A DNA stretch of 64,000 nucleotides from an uncultured delta proteobacterium (GTDB lineage: Bacteria; Desulfobacterota; WTBG01; CAIYCZ01; CAIRTM01), in contig CAWDSQ010000001.1 in assembly GCA_963804955.1 (NCBI GenBank), forward strand, positions 96,001-160,000. The letters run 5' to 3'. Position numbers: made by a program. Shown here piece after piece: positions 36,001-42,000 of the stretch. Each line of letters opens with the position of its first letter. The stretch's first letter is position 1.

Positions 36001-39000
36001 CTTCGTGCTCAAGAGAGCGGCAGCCACCGACCTGCTTCCGGCCGTGGAGGCGGTTTTAAAGGGCGGAATGTATGTTTCACCCTATTGCCGCGAACAGGGC
36101 GCATGACTATACAGAAGCCCGACGGAAGAGCCGGCAGGGAGCCTTGAAAAATTCAGGCAATGAAGGCGCCGCTGTGCGGGCATAGCAAATAGATTTGACG
36201 TGAACCATAACGTTTTTTTACAACAACCACGGAAAGGGCGGCGTATGAAAATGCAGGGAACAAAATGGGCAGGCATGTTTGCGGTACTGGCGGGCGTATG
36301 TCTTTTGGCGGGGGCCTGCGCGACGATGCAGGCGCGCAGCACGACAACAGCGGGATTTCTGGGCGACTATTCCCAGCTCAAGGAGGGCGGGGAGGGCAAG
36401 GCCCTGCTCGTCTATGTCGACCCGGCGGCGGATTTCAAGGCATATCCCCGTATTATGATGGACCCGGTCAAGCTCTATGCTTCATCGGAGCACAGCATGC
36501 AGAATGTTTCTTCGGAAGACCGGCAGAAACTTTTAAACTATGCCGATGCCACCATTCGTGAACATCTTGCCAAATATTATACCTTCGTGAAGAGCCCGGG
36601 CCCCGGCGTCATGCGCCTGCGCGTAGCGATAACCGAGGCCGAGAGCTCCTCTGTCGTGCTTGATACCGTCTCCACCATCCTGCCGGTGGGCCTTGCCCTG
36701 GCCGGCCTTCAGACGGCTGCGACGGGCTCGTGCTCTTTTGTGGGCTCTGCCGGGCTTGAAGTCGAGATGCTGGACAGCCAGACCGGCAAGCGCCTGGCTG
36801 CGGCTGTCGATCGCCGGGTAGGCGGCAAGGTGAGCGGAGAGGGCGATAAATTTGACGAATGGCGCACGGTGAAGAGCGCTGTCGATTACTGGGCCGGCCG
36901 GCTAGAGCTTCGCCTGGGCGAAAAACTCGGCAGAATAGCCACACAGTAAGCGTACAAGAACCACCGGCGCGAAGGCCCAGGCCGCACTACAGAGGCGCGG
37001 GGCGGGTTCGCGGGGTCATTAGCAGGAAAGGCGCACGGCATGAAACAGCGATCCTTCAGGATGTTTTCCAGTATGCTCTCGCTTACCGGCCTGTTCATTG
37101 CGGTTTTCAATATCGCACTGATAGTCGTTCTGTCGATTGCCGATGCCCTGTCCGCGGGCACACACCCGTATGCCGACCTGGTGATCTGGATCATGCTGCC
37201 GTGCGGCGTTTTGTTCGGCGCGGCCCTGATCATTGCCGGCATCCGGCGGCAGCGACGCACGAAAGGCGGGAGCCGCTTCCCGGTCATCGACCTTAACGAT
37301 ACCGGGCTGCGCAAAAAAGCGCTCGGCCTGCTGACGGTCCTGGTGCTGCTGTCGGTGCTCTATGCCTTTTCCGGGTATAAGGCCTATGAGTTTTCCGAAT
37401 CAAATACATTCTGCGGAGCCTGCCACACCGTGATGGGGCCTGAAACCAGGTCCAACGCCTACTCGCCACACGCACAGCTCCTGTGCACCAACTGCCACGT
37501 GGGGCCCGGGGCAAAGTACTATTTCATCTCCCATCTGAAAGGAGCCCGGGAGGGCTTCAATTACCTGCTCGACAGATACAGCCGGCCCCTTCATACGCCG
37601 ATTGCGGCCCTGCGTCCATCCGAGCATATATGCGAAAACTGTCACGGCCCCAAGTACCAGTTAAACGAGCGGCTTGAAAGCCGCACCTATTTCATGTCCG
37701 ACAAGGAGAATTCACGCAAGAAGATCAACCTGCTGTTTAAGCCGGGTAAAACGGACACCACGCTTGAGCAGCCGCCGAAAATGCACTGGCACTCAAGCAC
37801 CACGGCTGAAATCGAGTACGCCGATACTGACCCGAAGCGGATCGAGATTCCGTGGATTCGCGTCAAGCGGCTCGACGGAACCGTGCGCACCTACCGCCGC
37901 GACGACTCGAAGCTCTCGGACGACGACGCGGCAAAGGCCGGGACGAGGCGCATGGACTGCATGGACTGCCACAACCGGACGGGCCATCCCTTTAACCCCC
38001 CGGCGGCTATTCTGAACGCCATGCTCGGGGCGGGGTTCATTGATACGGGCCTGCCGGAGATTAAGCATGTCGGAGTCCAGACACTTGAAGCCTCCTATGC
38101 TTCCCAGGAGGAGGCAGCCAAAGGCATAGAAACGGCAATTCGTGACTTCTATCGCAAGGCCTATCCTGCTGTTGCAAAGGACAAGGAGGCGGCAATCACC
38201 TCAGCGATCACGGCGCTGCAGGGCGCCTACAGCCGCAACTACGACCCGCATATGAAGGTGAGCTGGCGCAGCTTTGGCAGCAATCAGGGGCATATGTATT
38301 CGCCGGGCTGCTTCCGCTGCCATGACGGCAAACACCGAAGCGATGACGGCGCTGTTCTGTCGCAGGACTGCAGCCTGTGCCACCTGCTGATCGAGCGTGT
38401 CCCCGGCCAGGATACTGCCGGAAGCAATCAGGCCGAGATCCGCGTGATGGATTATCCGCACCCCGTTGATATCGGCGACAGGTTGCAGACAATGATGTGT
38501 ACGAAATGCCACGGCCCATCATCGTGACCGGCTGCGACAGGGTAATAGACACAGGCCTGACCCTTCTTGATACATACAGGAAACAAGGGATATGAAAAAA
38601 AGCATACAACTTTGCATCATTGCCGCCGCAACACTGGCGAGCCTCCTTGCATGCTTCTTCGCCCCGGCGCCAGCCCCGGCTGAGGAGTCAAGCTGCTTAA
38701 CCTGCCACCTGTGCGGTCCCATGCTCGTCAAAAACCGCGGCGTGGCCACGCCCATAGTCTCGGCCATGCAGTCAGGGGCCGGCTGAGGCGGTGCCGTGGC
38801 TCAGTTGGAGCCGCACATAAAAGTGCTTGTTTCCCGGGAGTTTCTTGCCACCGCCCATGGTCAAATCGCGTGCGGAACCTGCCACGGCGGCGACGCTGCC
38901 AGCATGAGCAAAGCAGCCGCTCACAAGGGGATGGATGCATTTCCCTCCATAACCAATCCGCAGAATACCTGCGGCGCCTGCAAGGACCCGAAAGCGGCAC

Positions 39001-42000
39001 AGCACCGTGACATCGCCGCCTCGGCCAAAGATTCCCTGCACGCCAGCCTTGCCACCTTTACCGGGGTGCTCAAGAGCCGCGCGAATATGGAAAAATGGGA
39101 AACAATCGACGAGGCTCGCAAGAACCACTGCGCCGCCTGTCACACGAGCTGCGGCGGCTGTCATGTGAGCCGTCCCAAATCAGCGCAGAAGGGCTTTATT
39201 GCGGGGCATATCTTTAAAAAGACCCCCGATCAGGTCAATCAGTGCACCGCCTGCCACGGCAGCCGCGTGGGCTATGAATTTTCAGGCCAGCGCGGCAGGG
39301 GTGATATCCATGCGTCACAAGAGAGTATGACCTGCTCCTCCTGCCACAAGGCAAAAGAGATGCATGCTGCGGCAGCCAAAGACCTGCCGGGCCGCTATCA
39401 CCTGCCGGAGGCGGCGCGCTGCGATGATTGTCACAAAGATATGGAGAAAAAGGCCGTGCGGCAGCACGCCGATCATATCGGCAAGGTGCAATGCCAGGTG
39501 TGCCATTCGCAGACGTATGTCAACTGCTACAGTTGCCATGTGGGCAAAGACAGCCAGAACACGGCCTATTTCCAGAACCGTCTTGAAGTTGAAACCATGA
39601 AAATCGGGCTCAACTATGACGCTGCAGCTCCGGGCGCCGGCTACCGCTTCATGCTGGTGCGCCACGAGCCGTCGTATCCGGAGATGTTCGATTTCTACGG
39701 CAAGGATCTCTTCACGAACTTCGGCAAGGTGCCCACCTGGAAGCGGACCTCGCCTCACAACATCCAGAAACTCACCTGGCAGGCCGCCAGCTGCAACCAC
39801 TGCCACGCTAATCGCGAGCTGTTCCTTGCAAACGCCGATCTTGCAGACTATGAAATAGGCAGCAAACAAGGCGGTTGTTGTTCCCGACGCCGACATGCCG
39901 AAAGCGGTGCAAGACAGCAGCAAGCTTGACATCGACATATCCCGGGTCAGAACCGGCATGGTGGTTGACGCCCGGTGGCTGCATGACAACAGCAGGCAGA
40001 AGGATCTGGTCGTCATCGATGCCCGCAGCCGCGCTGCCTACGACAAGGGCCATATCGAAGGCGCCATTTCGCTGGACCCCCTGGTGAGCGGCCTGCGCAC
40101 CGGCCCCAAAGCGAAGAACCCCTTCTCGCTTGAAGACCATGCCAAGATTGCCGGCATTTTCGGCAGCAGGGGAATAGCAGCCGAAGATCATATCGTGGTG
40201 TATGACCAGAACGGCACCATGGCGGCAGGTCTGCTGTCTGTTCTGCAATGGGCCGGCGCTGCCAATGTCTCCTATTTGAACGGCGGCATTGAGGGGTGGC
40301 ATCTGGCCGGCTTCCACACGAGCACTGAGCCGTATACCCGTGAAGCGCGCACCTTCGGAGGAACCGTCAGGCCGGAGCTGGTCGTCAGCAGCGCAGAGCT
40401 TACCGGGCTTCTGAAAAAGAACACGGTGGTGCTTATCGATACTCGCGCCATTGATCGGGCCAGGGGACTGACACAACATGAGCTGGCCGGCCGTGCAGGC
40501 GCTATTGCCGGATCGGTCAATATCCCGCTCGGGGCTTTCTACATGGAAAACGGCTTTTTGAAGCAGCCGGTCCGAGCTGCTGTGGATGCTAGCCACCTAT
40601 GGCGTCACGCCGGACAAGACCGTCATCACCACCTGCGACACCGGCATTGCTGCCGCAGATGCCTTTTTCGTCCTTCGGTATCTTGGATTTTCCAACGCCC
40701 GGGTGCATGAAGAAGCCTGGGTGGTGTGGTCTAACACAGTGGATATGACGCCGCTTCAGTGCGGCAGTGGTATTTTTTAGTATAGTAATTGATGTGTGCG
40801 TAATAAGTCGTCACCCCCGGTGAAAACCGGGGCACAGGGTAGGGGCACGAAGCATCGTGCCCCCCACATAAGAATCCTGGATACCGGCTTTCGCCGGTAT
40901 GACGAATTCGTTGAACTTTCGATTTTTTACGAGAGGGTCTTAAGTAATTGCAGTTGTAAGAATATGGATTCAATTATATAAACATATACATAATGTTACA
41001 CCAATGCTCACTTGGGGAAAAGAATACTTTTCAGGAGATACCGATGAAAACGAGCGTCGCAAAGACCGTGAGGACCACCCCTTTAAAATTATTACCCTTT
41101 TTCCTGATCGCAAGCCTGTTTACTAGTGCTTCCTTCGGGGTGCTCGAAAGAGCAGAAGGCGCCGGCCCTGCCGCCGCCGGACGTTGAGGTTATCGATGTG
41201 GTGCAGAAAGATGTGCCCATCCAGTCCGAGTGGATCGGCACGATCGACGGCATGGTGAACGCCACTATCAGGGCGCAGGTATCGGGCTATCTCATCAAGC
41301 AGAATTACAAGGAAGGCTCGCTGGTAAAAAAAGATGATGTGCTGTTTGAAATAGACCCCCGGCCGTTTCAGGCTGCCTTTGACCAGGCGCAGGCCGAGCT
41401 TGCGCAGCGGCAGGCCCTCTGGGGCACGTCAAAGGCCAATCTTGCGCGCATCCGGCCTCTGGCAAAGAAAAATGCCGTGAGCCAGAAAGACCTCGACGAT
41501 GCCGTGGGCGCTGAGCAGTCGCTGCAGGCCGGCGTTCTTGCGGCCAAAGCAGCTTTCGAAAAAGCGGCGCTTGATCTTGAATTTACAAAAATAAAATCAC
41601 CCATCGACGGCATTGCAGGCCTTGCCGCCGCACAGATCGGCAACCTCGTGGGGCCGCAAACCGCCGACCTCACCACGGTTTCCACGGTTGACCCGGTGAA
41701 GGTCTATGTGGCGATCAGCGAGCAGGAATACATGCGGTTCATGCAGGATAGCGCCCCGCACAGAACCCCTGGCGCTGGACCTTGTGCTGTGCCGACGGCA
41801 GCCTGTTTCCGCATAAGGGGAAAGTCGCTTTTGCCGACCGGCAGGTTGATGTGAAGACCGGGTCGATTCGCGTTGCCACCGAGTTTCCCAATCCCGGCAA
41901 TGTGCTGCGGCCGGGCCAGTATGCGAAGGTCAGGGCGTCCGTCAAAACGCGCACCGGCGCGCTGCTGGTGCCGCAGCGGGCGGTTGCCGACATGCAGGGC

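Follow-up and report, generated by a model that had tools for sequence, protein, structure and literature searches.

A single gene on the plus strand (38592..40783, about 715 codons) of the window analyzed here, a 64,000-nucleotide stretch from an uncultured delta proteobacterium, is predicted from its sequence to encode an exported selenoprotein in which an 11-heme cytochrome c is followed by a tandem rhodanese. On the best overall explanation, the protein reduces sulfane sulfur (polysulfide or persulfide) in the periplasm, a reading to which we assign a probability of roughly 60%. That the product is both a selenoprotein and the translation of one fused gene, as a preliminary description had proposed by joining the gene calls g00159, g00160 and g00161, can be stated with high confidence.

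Inspection of the reading frames shows that the first open reading frame (38592-38786) encodes a signal peptide (about residues 1-30, by eye) and the first heme motif, CLTCH (38694-38708), which together form an N-terminal module (38592..38783, +), before closing at a TGA codon (38784-38786); the next one (38796-39929, +) continues in the same frame. If the UGA is read as selenocysteine and two single-nucleotide insertions are discounted, one frame spans all of 38592..40783. The first +1 break (39856..39859, +) leads into rhodanese domain 1 and the second (40568..40571, +, shift at 40569-40571) into the remainder of rhodanese domain 2, each with one surplus base. Near-identical contigs were available from three of three DNA runs (three studies), and all lack both bases, at 39858 and 40569 in the X1 and X2 contigs and at 39856 and 40571 in the X5 contig; this identifies the two shifts as insertions made in this assembly, as had been suggested. 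Orthologues read continuously across the first break, nine intact read-through orthologues measure 703-715 amino acids, and over 100 clusters of orthologues, 605-654 amino acids long, carry cytochrome and rhodanese together, in agreement with the earlier statement that database orthologues are fused. A terminator-like hairpin with a T run (40750..40783, +; consensus match only) overlaps the TAG stop and the codons just before it. The frames of the downstream efflux genes are also broken in this noisy assembly.

The in-frame stop codon (38784..38786, +) very probably specifies selenocysteine, as a comparison of homologous sequences suggests. It would be residue U65, in the context SGAG-U-GGAV and 26 residues past the first heme motif. 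Exactly one in-frame TGA was found in all 56 loci spanning this position (protein identities of 33-100%); by set, it is present in 7/7 strong matches of the same class, in all nine fused orthologues (genome_contigs) and in 45/45 site-covering matches from a 401-genome sample of the phylum, a 46th match, cut by a contig end, having been left out. Among the 41 loci read, the UGA lies 22-31 residues after heme 1, and the residues on both of its sides are conserved in frame. The GxGUGG motif, earlier called invariant, proves to be merely dominant (34 of these 41 loci), the others having AGUGV (three), GxGUAG (three) or GxGUGS (one). Ten of 33 full-length database homologues have cysteine at the selenocysteine column; the other 23 have neither selenocysteine nor cysteine there, W, Y, M, H and L being among the residues seen, which indicates that the chalcogen is dispensable in some branches; in four of the 23 a cysteine follows one or more columns later.

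Nine nucleotides past the UGA codon begins a SECIS-like hairpin (38796..38814, +), identified by alignment of relatives, with a GUGGCUC / GAGCCGC stem and an AGUUG loop; in relatives the loop is GUU and the stem has 8 bp. Across 34 aligned sequences, 96.6% of the cells are paired, as against 34-49% when the partner strand is slid, and in three pairs, 10 cells in all, both partners have changed, giving a covariation score matched by none of 500 shuffles. These values uphold the claim of compensatory changes; one two-sided change accompanies a swap of VAPLEP to VEPLAP that keeps the stem. Distant clades have other hairpins at the same distance from the UGA. Taken alone, the window hairpin is only modestly stable (-15 kcal/mol, z -1.87), weakened by a CAG in place of the CCG that the first set shows in 16/16 other loci. 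Its apical loop begins 17-18 nt after the UGA, and both this distance and the loop's G agree with bacterial SECIS elements, whose apical loops lie 16-37 nt from the UGA with a G in the first loop positions (PMC13188914). The tRNA-Sec (76.7 bits), SelB (345 bits) and selenocysteine-type SelD (one TGA) reported earlier were all recovered in the genome, together with SelA (492 bits). SelA occurs in 42 of the 44 genomes that carry the family and in 371 of 401 overall, so that its co-occurrence is not discriminating.

The read-through frame contains the 10 CxxCH motifs counted previously and in addition one CxxCK (CGACK), which aligns with the third heme site of relatives, for 11 heme sites in all. 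Sites 2-11 lie in a core (38787..39858, +) delimited by translation, alignment and an AF2 model, with motifs starting at 38871, 38970 (CGACK), 39129, 39150, 39243, 39333, 39420, 39492, 39525 and 39792 (all +). In the family alignment (A3), C35, C38 and H39 of heme 1 are present in 45/45 covering rows, and against the 11 heme sites there are nine non-motif histidines conserved at 94% or more and one more at 81%. The AF2 domain model (pLDDT 90.4, pTM 0.84) aligns with octaheme tetrathionate reductase (OTR; PDB 1sp3, chain A) over 246 residues (VIA-align Z 9.1, rmsd 4.3; model 86-414, chain 1-425; runner-up Z 4.4), with a Foldseek probability of 0.98 and an E value of 2e-11 for the A3 profile. 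As modeled, the core is thus a distant structural relative of OTR, the nearest solved fold and an enzyme reported to cleave S-S bonds; the preliminary description had missed this resemblance. In the full-length model, residues 1-33 and 41-81, a stretch that includes the selenocysteine, fall below pLDDT 50; the same stretch reaches 78-90 in a domain model built on a deeper alignment of the N-terminus.

The C-terminal part contains two PF00581 domains, bearing out the tandem rhodanese described before. Domain 1 (39970..40302, +; 78.8 bits, residues 38-148 of 39859-40570) has aspartate in place of the catalytic cysteine, as read by eye from the translation. Domain 2 (40380..40735, +; 23.2 bits on 40586-40780) has the active-site loop C-D-T-G-I-A-A, its cysteine encoded at 40634-40636; this residue corresponds to C680 of the aligned orthologues, with conservation of 90% or more. 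The rhodanese is fused in 11 loci (the window, L028-L036 and L059), which form one branch of the tree (SH-aLRT 100) adjoining loci with a tandem-rhodanese neighbor. In 27 of the 29 other loci (6/7 class relatives and 21/22 determinable phylum loci) a separate rhodanese gene, single-domain or tandem depending on the branch, lies directly downstream, an arrangement that had also been overlooked. Upstream, 64 nt 5' of the selenoprotein gene and on the same strand, is a gene for a membrane-anchored cytochrome of the NapC/NirT/NrfH type with seven CxxCH motifs (37040..38527, +; Cytochrom_NNT 28.7 bits, Cytochrome_C7 41.1 bits; NCBIfam NrfH E 4e-10, under cut-off). This neighbor (g00158, provisionally called ImcH-like), earlier cited as a clue to function, is conserved upstream only in the two nearest orthologues (L028 and L029; 2/16 loci).

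Together, these features make it likely that the protein is a sulfur (chalcogen) redox enzyme that works with a rhodanese; narrowing its activity to polysulfide or sulfane reduction is more tentative, at somewhat less than even odds. By analogy, its best functional counterpart is MccSep/ExtKL of Geobacter sulfurreducens (NF040886; PDB 9wt8-9wtc), likewise a periplasmic multiheme cytochrome c with one UGA-encoded selenocysteine, a SECIS and public models split at the UGA. MccSep is a polysulfide reductase whose selenocysteine acts beside a heme with a non-histidine sixth ligand, and it is linked genetically to the rhodanese-like lipoprotein ExtH of the same cluster, whereas the rhodanese is fused in the window and directly adjacent in relatives. 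The two families are nonetheless distinct, as had been proposed: MccSep has five hemes rather than 11, its selenocysteine, residue 325, lies in a C-terminal Ig-like domain and not, like residue 65 of the present protein, in an N-terminal extension, and the A3 profile matches its chains insignificantly (E 0.03, 16 bits) and over generic heme motifs. No NF040886 match above cut-off was found in the organism's own genome. In Wolinella succinogenes, the periplasmic rhodanese-like polysulfide-sulfur transferase Sud reportedly feeds polysulfide reductase (Psr), a comparable coupling of a rhodanese-type carrier to a terminal sulfur reductase; Psr, however, is said to be a molybdopterin enzyme, neither cytochrome nor selenoprotein, and its pairing with Sud is not a fusion. 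The motifs listed for rhodanese-like selenoproteins presumably place selenocysteine in the rhodanese active-site loop. Forms 1-5 of those proteins combine PF00581 with selenocysteine in the motifs UxxS, UxxG, CxU and UxxxxU (PMC13188914); the window protein, set apart from them by these listed motifs only, keeps cysteine in its rhodanese (CDTG) and carries selenocysteine in the cytochrome.

Alternatively, the same selenoprotein could reduce or oxidize thiosulfate/tetrathionate in the manner of OTR or TsdA, and its rhodanese would then cleave or form thiosulfate. The OTR-like fold, the SseA/TST-type character of the tandem rhodanese (NF008557, E 4e-16, under cut-off) and the names thiosulfate/3-mercaptopyruvate sulfurtransferase given to orthologues in the source databases all point this way. 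Yet these names are automatic. The OTR family, which includes selenocysteine forms annotated in GenBank, also alternates selenocysteine and cysteine (one TGA in 20/47 above-cut-off matches in the phylum sample), but it has eight hemes, not 11, and its Sec/Cys stands in NNF[U/C], some 10-12 residues ahead of the heme-2 motif, where the A3 alignment of the window family has no conserved cysteine; the window selenocysteine lies in the N-terminal heme-1 module, outside 1sp3 coverage. Membership in TIGR04315 was rejected (19.2 bits, where the cut-off is 375), and at E 1e-20 the organism's own genome yields no match to that family. We consider this alternative unlikely. Less probable still is an oxidative role, in which the protein would accept sulfane sulfur, or persulfide derived from sulfide, from its rhodanese and send electrons to periplasmic cytochromes or quinone. 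It would suit sulfur oxidizers and disproportionators, the latter numerous in this phylum, where 44 of 401 genomes carry the family, and the His/Cys-heme enzymes TsdA and SoxAX act oxidatively; the sequence leaves the direction unfixed, however, and NapC/NirT-type cytochromes, such as the upstream neighbor, typically oxidize quinol toward periplasmic acceptors. That the protein acts on oxyanions of selenium or tellurium, or takes part in trafficking of selenium carried by the rhodanese, is improbable. MccSep reduces selenite too, and ExtI/ExtH have been linked to the uptake and reduction of selenite, but selenite reduction by MccSep is described as a side activity beside sulfur respiration, and the weak similarity to ExtM, of a selenite/tellurite reduction operon (E 1.6e-4), reaches just 20 bits where the cut-off demands 800.

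Readings that dispense with selenocysteine fare far worse. If the UGA were a true stop, as translation table 11 and public models starting past it would have it, a 64-residue monoheme peptide would precede a separate cytochrome-rhodanese gene. That downstream frame has nine CxxCH motifs but lacks a signal peptide, and from what is established about how c-type cytochromes mature, it could not be matured alone; frame, flanking residues and hairpin are conserved across 56 loci, and the cysteine forms run continuously through the site, making termination highly improbable. Equally doubtful is insertion of cysteine, tryptophan or glycine at the UGA: five database homologues show tryptophan at the site and one glycine, but these may be TGA codons decoded under another code in gene calling, and the covarying hairpin and the selenocysteine machinery argue against it. 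A pseudogene or sequencing artefact, which the two frameshifts and the broken efflux genes might suggest, has a negligible chance given that the TGA recurs at 55 further loci in different assemblies and that the frameshifts are absent from the contigs of three other runs.

For sulfane sulfur reduction, we infer both the direction and the substrate. The hairpin 9 nt after the UGA would direct selenocysteine insertion; the rhodanese cysteine would bind sulfane sulfur in persulfide form and hand it to the selenolate; and a Se-S intermediate would form beside the one heme without a conserved histidine sixth ligand. The heme chain would deliver electrons, freeing sulfide, and in the window's clade these would probably come from menaquinol via the upstream NapC/NirT-type cytochrome. 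Neither NCBIfam 20.0 nor the papers searched yielded the family. Public gene models are truncated after the UGA, as had been noted: the best 120 database clusters cover 75-84% of the query, and of eight fetched sequences six start MAPLEP and the other two also just past the UGA. Judged by these sequences, this is a widespread family entered in databases only as truncated proteins, and one that probably reduces sulfur compounds.

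The cytochrome-rhodanese gene at 38592-40783 opens with a reading frame (38592-38786, + strand) that encodes a hydrophobic N-terminus and one CLTCH motif and stops at a TGA at 38784-38786; a second open reading frame follows in the same frame (38796-39929, +). Reading through the TGA yields ten CxxCH motifs and, by translation and family alignment, one CGACK, which together make 11 heme sites. Further downstream, a +1 frame shift near 39856-39859 leads into the rhodanese domain, and a second +1 shift near 40569-40571 leads into the end of the second rhodanese domain with its loop CDTGIAA; the last codons of the gene overlap a terminator-like hairpin. 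Comparison with assembled contigs of closely similar sequence, tabulated for their best-supported differences only, revealed that one base is missing at 39856/39858 and one at 40569/40571 in the contigs of three DNA runs from three studies. Because these contigs lack the extra bases, both frame breaks are errors of the window's assembly. The orthologues agree: more than 100 clusters, at 62-83% identity, consist of single cytochrome-plus-rhodanese proteins of 605-654 aa, and eight of the nine orthologous loci read in genome assemblies run continuously through cytochrome and rhodanese (703-715 aa), the ninth (L033) having a frameshift of its own. Thus, as the preliminary description had proposed, three gene calls constitute one gene, joined by UGA read-through and by discounting two assembly insertions, and its database orthologues are fused. 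The RND efflux genes downstream (41126-43183; a membrane-fusion protein and an AcrB-type pump) are broken over several frames, consistent with an error-prone assembly. Metatranscriptome run X20 contains a contig of closely similar sequence that covers 38709-38858 and spans the UGA, a weak hint, short of proof of transcription, that the region is perhaps transcribed in one piece in some sediment community.

Conservation of the stop codon argues that it is translated. Exactly one in-frame TGA is present in all 56 loci that cover the site, each locus being counted once; this holds for 7 of 7 loci of the same class (36-40% identity), for 9 of 9 fused orthologues and for 45 of 45 site-covering matches in a 401-genome sample of the phylum (33-46% identity), where a 46th match ends at a contig edge. 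The Sec site was read in 41 of the 56 loci, and in these the selenocysteine lies 22-31 residues past the heme-1 histidine, in the context GxGUGG (34 loci), GxGUAG (three), AGUGV (three) or GxGUGS (one). GxGUGG is therefore the dominant motif and not, as first thought, an invariant one. Inspection of public gene models indicates that they are indeed cut: the best 120 clusters cover 75-84% of the query, six of eight fetched sequences start with MAPLEP and the remaining two likewise start right past the UGA, so that signal peptide, heme 1 and the UGA are absent from them. Cytochrome c maturation takes place in the periplasm; since the body 3' of the UGA holds nine CxxCH motifs and lacks a signal peptide of its own, it cannot function as a separate gene.

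The UGA is followed, at a distance of 9 nt, by an 8-bp stem (GUGGCUCC / GGAGCCAY) with a 3-nt apical loop in 33 of 34 aligned sequences, the loop being GUU in 31 of the 33 and GGU in two. In its main-text passages, PMC13188914 gives as marks of a bacterial SECIS an apical loop 16-37 nt from the UGA and a G in the first loop positions; the spacing seen here, where the GUU loop begins 17 nt past the UGA, and the G at the loop start agree with that description. Across the 34 sequences, 96.6% of cells pair in the given structure, versus 34-49% when one partner is slid, and both-sided changes occur at three pairs (10 cells), with a covariation score that none of 500 shuffles reached, which bears out the earlier proposal of a hairpin with compensatory changes. 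In three relatives (L070, L073 and L075), VAPLEP has become VEPLAP, a change that exchanges GCU and GAG without breaking the stem, and more distant clades (L078-L083) have other sequences, yet show a hairpin at the same distance. In the window itself the stem is 7 bp and the loop 5 nt, because 38802-38804 reads CAG (Gln) instead of the CCG (Pro) that each of the 16 other loci in the first set has, which opens the top pair; this CAG could be a real variant or a further assembly error. Folded alone, the window hairpin does not stand out (z -1.87), 9 of 200 shuffles doing equally well.

The Sec machinery expected from the preliminary description was found in full in the organism's own genome: tRNA-Sec (76.7 bits), SelA (492 bits), SelB (345 bits) and SelD (334 bits), with SelA adjoining tRNA-Sec and with one in-frame TGA in the SelD gene (L054, G000:C28:1709-2632), as in a Sec-type selenophosphate synthetase. 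Co-occurrence with SelA was set aside as support, since SelA is found in 42 of 44 carriers of the family versus 371 of 401 sampled genomes overall and hence has no discriminating power; both SelA-less carriers have a tRNA-Sec (72.6 and 73.7 bits), one of them 112 nt from its contig start. Cys occupies the Sec column in 10 of the 33 full-length database homologues that cover the site (GEGCGG and GGGCGG being examples), and the other 23 have a different residue or a gap, with a Cys at least one column further on in four. The column holds Trp in database proteins P0132, P0148, P0163, P0249 and P0255 and Gly in P0147, in contexts that are otherwise Sec-like (such as GEGWAGE); these forms may be TGA translated under code 4 or 25 by the gene caller. 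In a quick tree, whose sampling is uneven in that Sec rows come from genome searches and other rows from database models, Sec forms are spread over five or more branches, with Cys and other forms in between. Conserved site, SECIS hairpin, Sec machinery and Cys homologues together support the prediction, made from sequence, that the UGA of the gene encodes selenocysteine.

The cytochrome part matches no Pfam or NCBIfam family over cut-off, and a single-sequence phmmer search of the PDB gave no match below E 0.4. An AF2 model of residues 1-423 reached a pLDDT of 90.4 and a pTM of 0.84. Foldseek returned no match at E 0.001 or better, the octaheme tetrathionate reductase (OTR) being matched at E 5.8e-3 with a probability of 0.98; VIA-align superposed model residues 86-414 on chain residues 1-425 of the Shewanella OTR (1sp3) with rmsd 4.3 over 246 residues at Z 9.1, the next best match having Z 4.4. 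OTR is thus the nearest solved fold, clearly so by VIA-align only, and the heme-1/Sec module (residues 31-85) falls outside the match. The family profile (A3) finds 1sp3 at E 2e-11 and MccSep, the known selenocysteine multiheme cytochrome, at E 0.03, the latter over generic heme motifs. A full-length AF2 model of an orthologue (L029) gave a pLDDT of 78.4 and a pTM of 0.78, with values below 50 in the N-terminal Sec region because only 9 of 70 alignment rows cover it. Against the 11 heme sites stand only nine histidines outside the heme motifs with a conservation of 94% or higher, and a tenth at 81%, a shortfall suggesting that at least one heme probably lacks a histidine sixth ligand. The third heme site (38970-39005) reads CGACK, with seven extra residues ahead of the aligned histidine (CGAC-KDPKAAQ-H), where relatives mostly have a plain CxxCH; the same form occurs in two fused loci (L028 and L029) and two database proteins (P0003 and P0004), and would represent either a split motif or a Lys ligand, like that of the NrfA CxxCK heme. 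The fused clade has a plain signal peptide, and the unfused relatives of the same class (L019-L024 and L027) have a Cys right past the hydrophobic N-terminus in a lipobox-like setting (for example LITGC or LMGC), and are probably lipoproteins.

PF00581 matches the C-terminal part twice (78.8 and 23.2 bits against a Pfam cut-off of 22.2), in keeping with the tandem rhodanese described before; the active-site Cys lies in the C-terminal domain, in the loop CDTGIAA, and is conserved in orthologues. Assignment to the 3-mercaptopyruvate sulfurtransferase equivalog NF008557 was rejected (58.8 bits versus a cut-off of 250), and the names SseA and thiosulfate sulfurtransferase borne by database orthologues are automatic. 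In the tree, the fused form (the window, L028-L036 and, up to the end of its contig, L059) is one clade with an SH-aLRT of 100, and sits beside loci that have a tandem-rhodanese neighbor. Such a gene lies directly downstream in six of the seven same-class relatives. At 24 further loci of the phylum, a single-domain rhodanese (143-193 aa) occupies that position in 14 and a tandem rhodanese in seven, two loci reaching a contig edge and one having none; the single-domain neighbors, which a tandem-rhodanese tblastn query missed, were found with Pfam and a second tblastn, and both of those read start with a hydrophobic, signal-peptide-like N-terminus. Fusion in one branch combined with adjacency in others is a classical sign of a functional pair, and no genomic evidence argues more strongly than the fusion in the window for cytochrome and rhodanese acting as one unit. 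The seventh class relative, L021 (G007:C22), has a metallo-beta-lactamase-fold gene downstream in place of a rhodanese and a class-V aminotransferase of the cysteine-desulfurase type upstream; either gene would be consistent with persulfide chemistry.

Upstream, on the + strand, the order is a two-component system, a DUF3313 protein and a NapC/NirT-type membrane cytochrome with seven CxxCH motifs, separated from the gene by 64 nt. The last of these had been named as an ImcH neighbor; the cytochrome is in place, but the synteny is conserved in only 2 of 16 loci, and we dropped an ImcH-like neighbor as a family trait. The genes at 33666-36949 (+), for a HisKA_3 kinase, a NarL/LuxR-type response regulator, a lone receiver domain and the DUF3313 protein, could possibly regulate the cytochrome operon; near unfused loci the regulators were instead sigma-54 activators in three cases and LysR regulators in four.

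In 2026, the Sec-containing multiheme cytochrome MccSep was shown to be the long-sought Geobacter sulfur reductase. MccSep (ExtKL) has five heme motifs, and its Sec sits close to a His/Cys heme within a C-terminal Ig-like domain, whereas the present protein has 11 sites and its Sec at residue 65; the corresponding model NF040886 (cut-off 250 bits) is not among the protein's NCBIfam matches, and its best match in the same genome scores 33 bits, at another locus. Heme count, Sec position, this non-match and the weak profile hit uphold the distinction drawn earlier, and the protein belongs to a second Sec-heme family, unrelated to MccSep. With OTR it shares the 1sp3 fold, but it is not a member of the OTR family TIGR04315 (19.2 bits versus a cut-off of 375). 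OTR-family genes (L038-L049 among them) are common in the phylum, 20 of 47 over-cut-off TIGR04315 matches having one TGA; their chalcogen residue sits in NNF[U/C], shortly before heme 2, to which heme 4 (C180) of the window's protein corresponds, and alternates between Sec and Cys. This loop aligns to non-conserved acidic residues of the present family's profile, with no conserved Cys there, and no Cys outside the heme motifs reaches a conservation of 60%. The rhodanese-like selenoproteins listed as forms 1-5 in the main text of PMC13188914 have Sec within the rhodanese motif (UxxS, UxxG, CxU or UxxxxU); here the rhodanese loop has Cys and the sole UGA is in the cytochrome part, which sets the protein apart from these forms by their listed motifs.

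Our full-text literature search returned no paper on a multiheme cytochrome fused with a rhodanese domain, and the sole items it gave on multiheme cytochromes with Sec were the MccSep paper and the review PMC13188914 of 2026. The heme-related selenoproteins in the main-text table of that review are ExtKL, the GSU2204 family and the OTR family, joined by the five rhodanese forms, whose motifs are different; in those passages the entries differ from the present protein by description and motif, consistent with its claimed absence from the inventory. At the level of search terms, the deep-Sep paper and the Haft preprint leave cytochromes unmentioned, and NCBIfam 20.0 has no model for the protein. 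We conclude that this is a new, uncatalogued family among selenocysteine multiheme cytochromes, as judged against the published descriptions of the nearest forms in the review's main text. The family is common, being present in 44 of 401 sampled genomes of the phylum, and over 1000 database clusters match it at E 1e-5 or better. Its link to rhodanese takes three architectures, and annotation consistently mislabels its members as "rhodanese-like" or "SseA" proteins without a signal peptide. Apart from the corrections concerning the motif and the ImcH-like synteny, the preliminary observation is confirmed overall and its interpretation supported.

These results show, at the level of prediction, an exported 11-heme selenoprotein tied to a rhodanese. 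By analogy, we favor reduction of polysulfide or sulfane sulfur as its function, with a probability of roughly 0.4. The enzyme might instead carry out thiosulfate or tetrathionate chemistry, which we consider unlikely, or operate in the oxidative direction, which we consider more unlikely still; selenium oxyanions as the substrate are the least probable of these readings. For polysulfide reduction, the rhodanese Cys would hold sulfane sulfur as a persulfide, which the selenolate would attack; the heme that lacks a histidine sixth ligand would reduce the resulting Se-S intermediate, with release of sulfide, and electrons would arrive through the heme chain, in the window's clade probably from quinol via the upstream NapC/NirT-type cytochrome. 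This model draws on three analogies: MccSep, in which Sec beside a His/Cys heme reduces polysulfide and whose cluster includes the gene for the rhodanese-like ExtH; OTR, which is related by fold and cleaves S-S bonds; and the Sud-Psr pair.

As a broader and still tentative proposal, on which we would not place even odds, the family may constitute a third, apparently widespread class of Sec multiheme enzymes, in which an OTR-like 11-heme scaffold has had its chalcogen moved from the OTR loop to an added N-terminal heme-1/Sec module. The rhodanese would be an obligatory partner, and a relay from Cys-persulfide to selenolate to heme would make a self-contained periplasmic sulfur (polysulfide) reductase, hard-wired by fusion in this clade. 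Such a class would have been invisible so far because all public gene models begin past the UGA. If the proposal is true, the class could provide Desulfobacterota, Nitrospirota and other groups with a way of respiring or disproportionating sulfur that has gone unnoticed. Independently of this proposal, many annotations would be put right, and selenoproteome inventories would gain an entry, once the family is recognised; it also offers a concrete candidate for the sulfur redox chemistry that uncultured bacteria of the sulfur cycle carry out in the periplasm.
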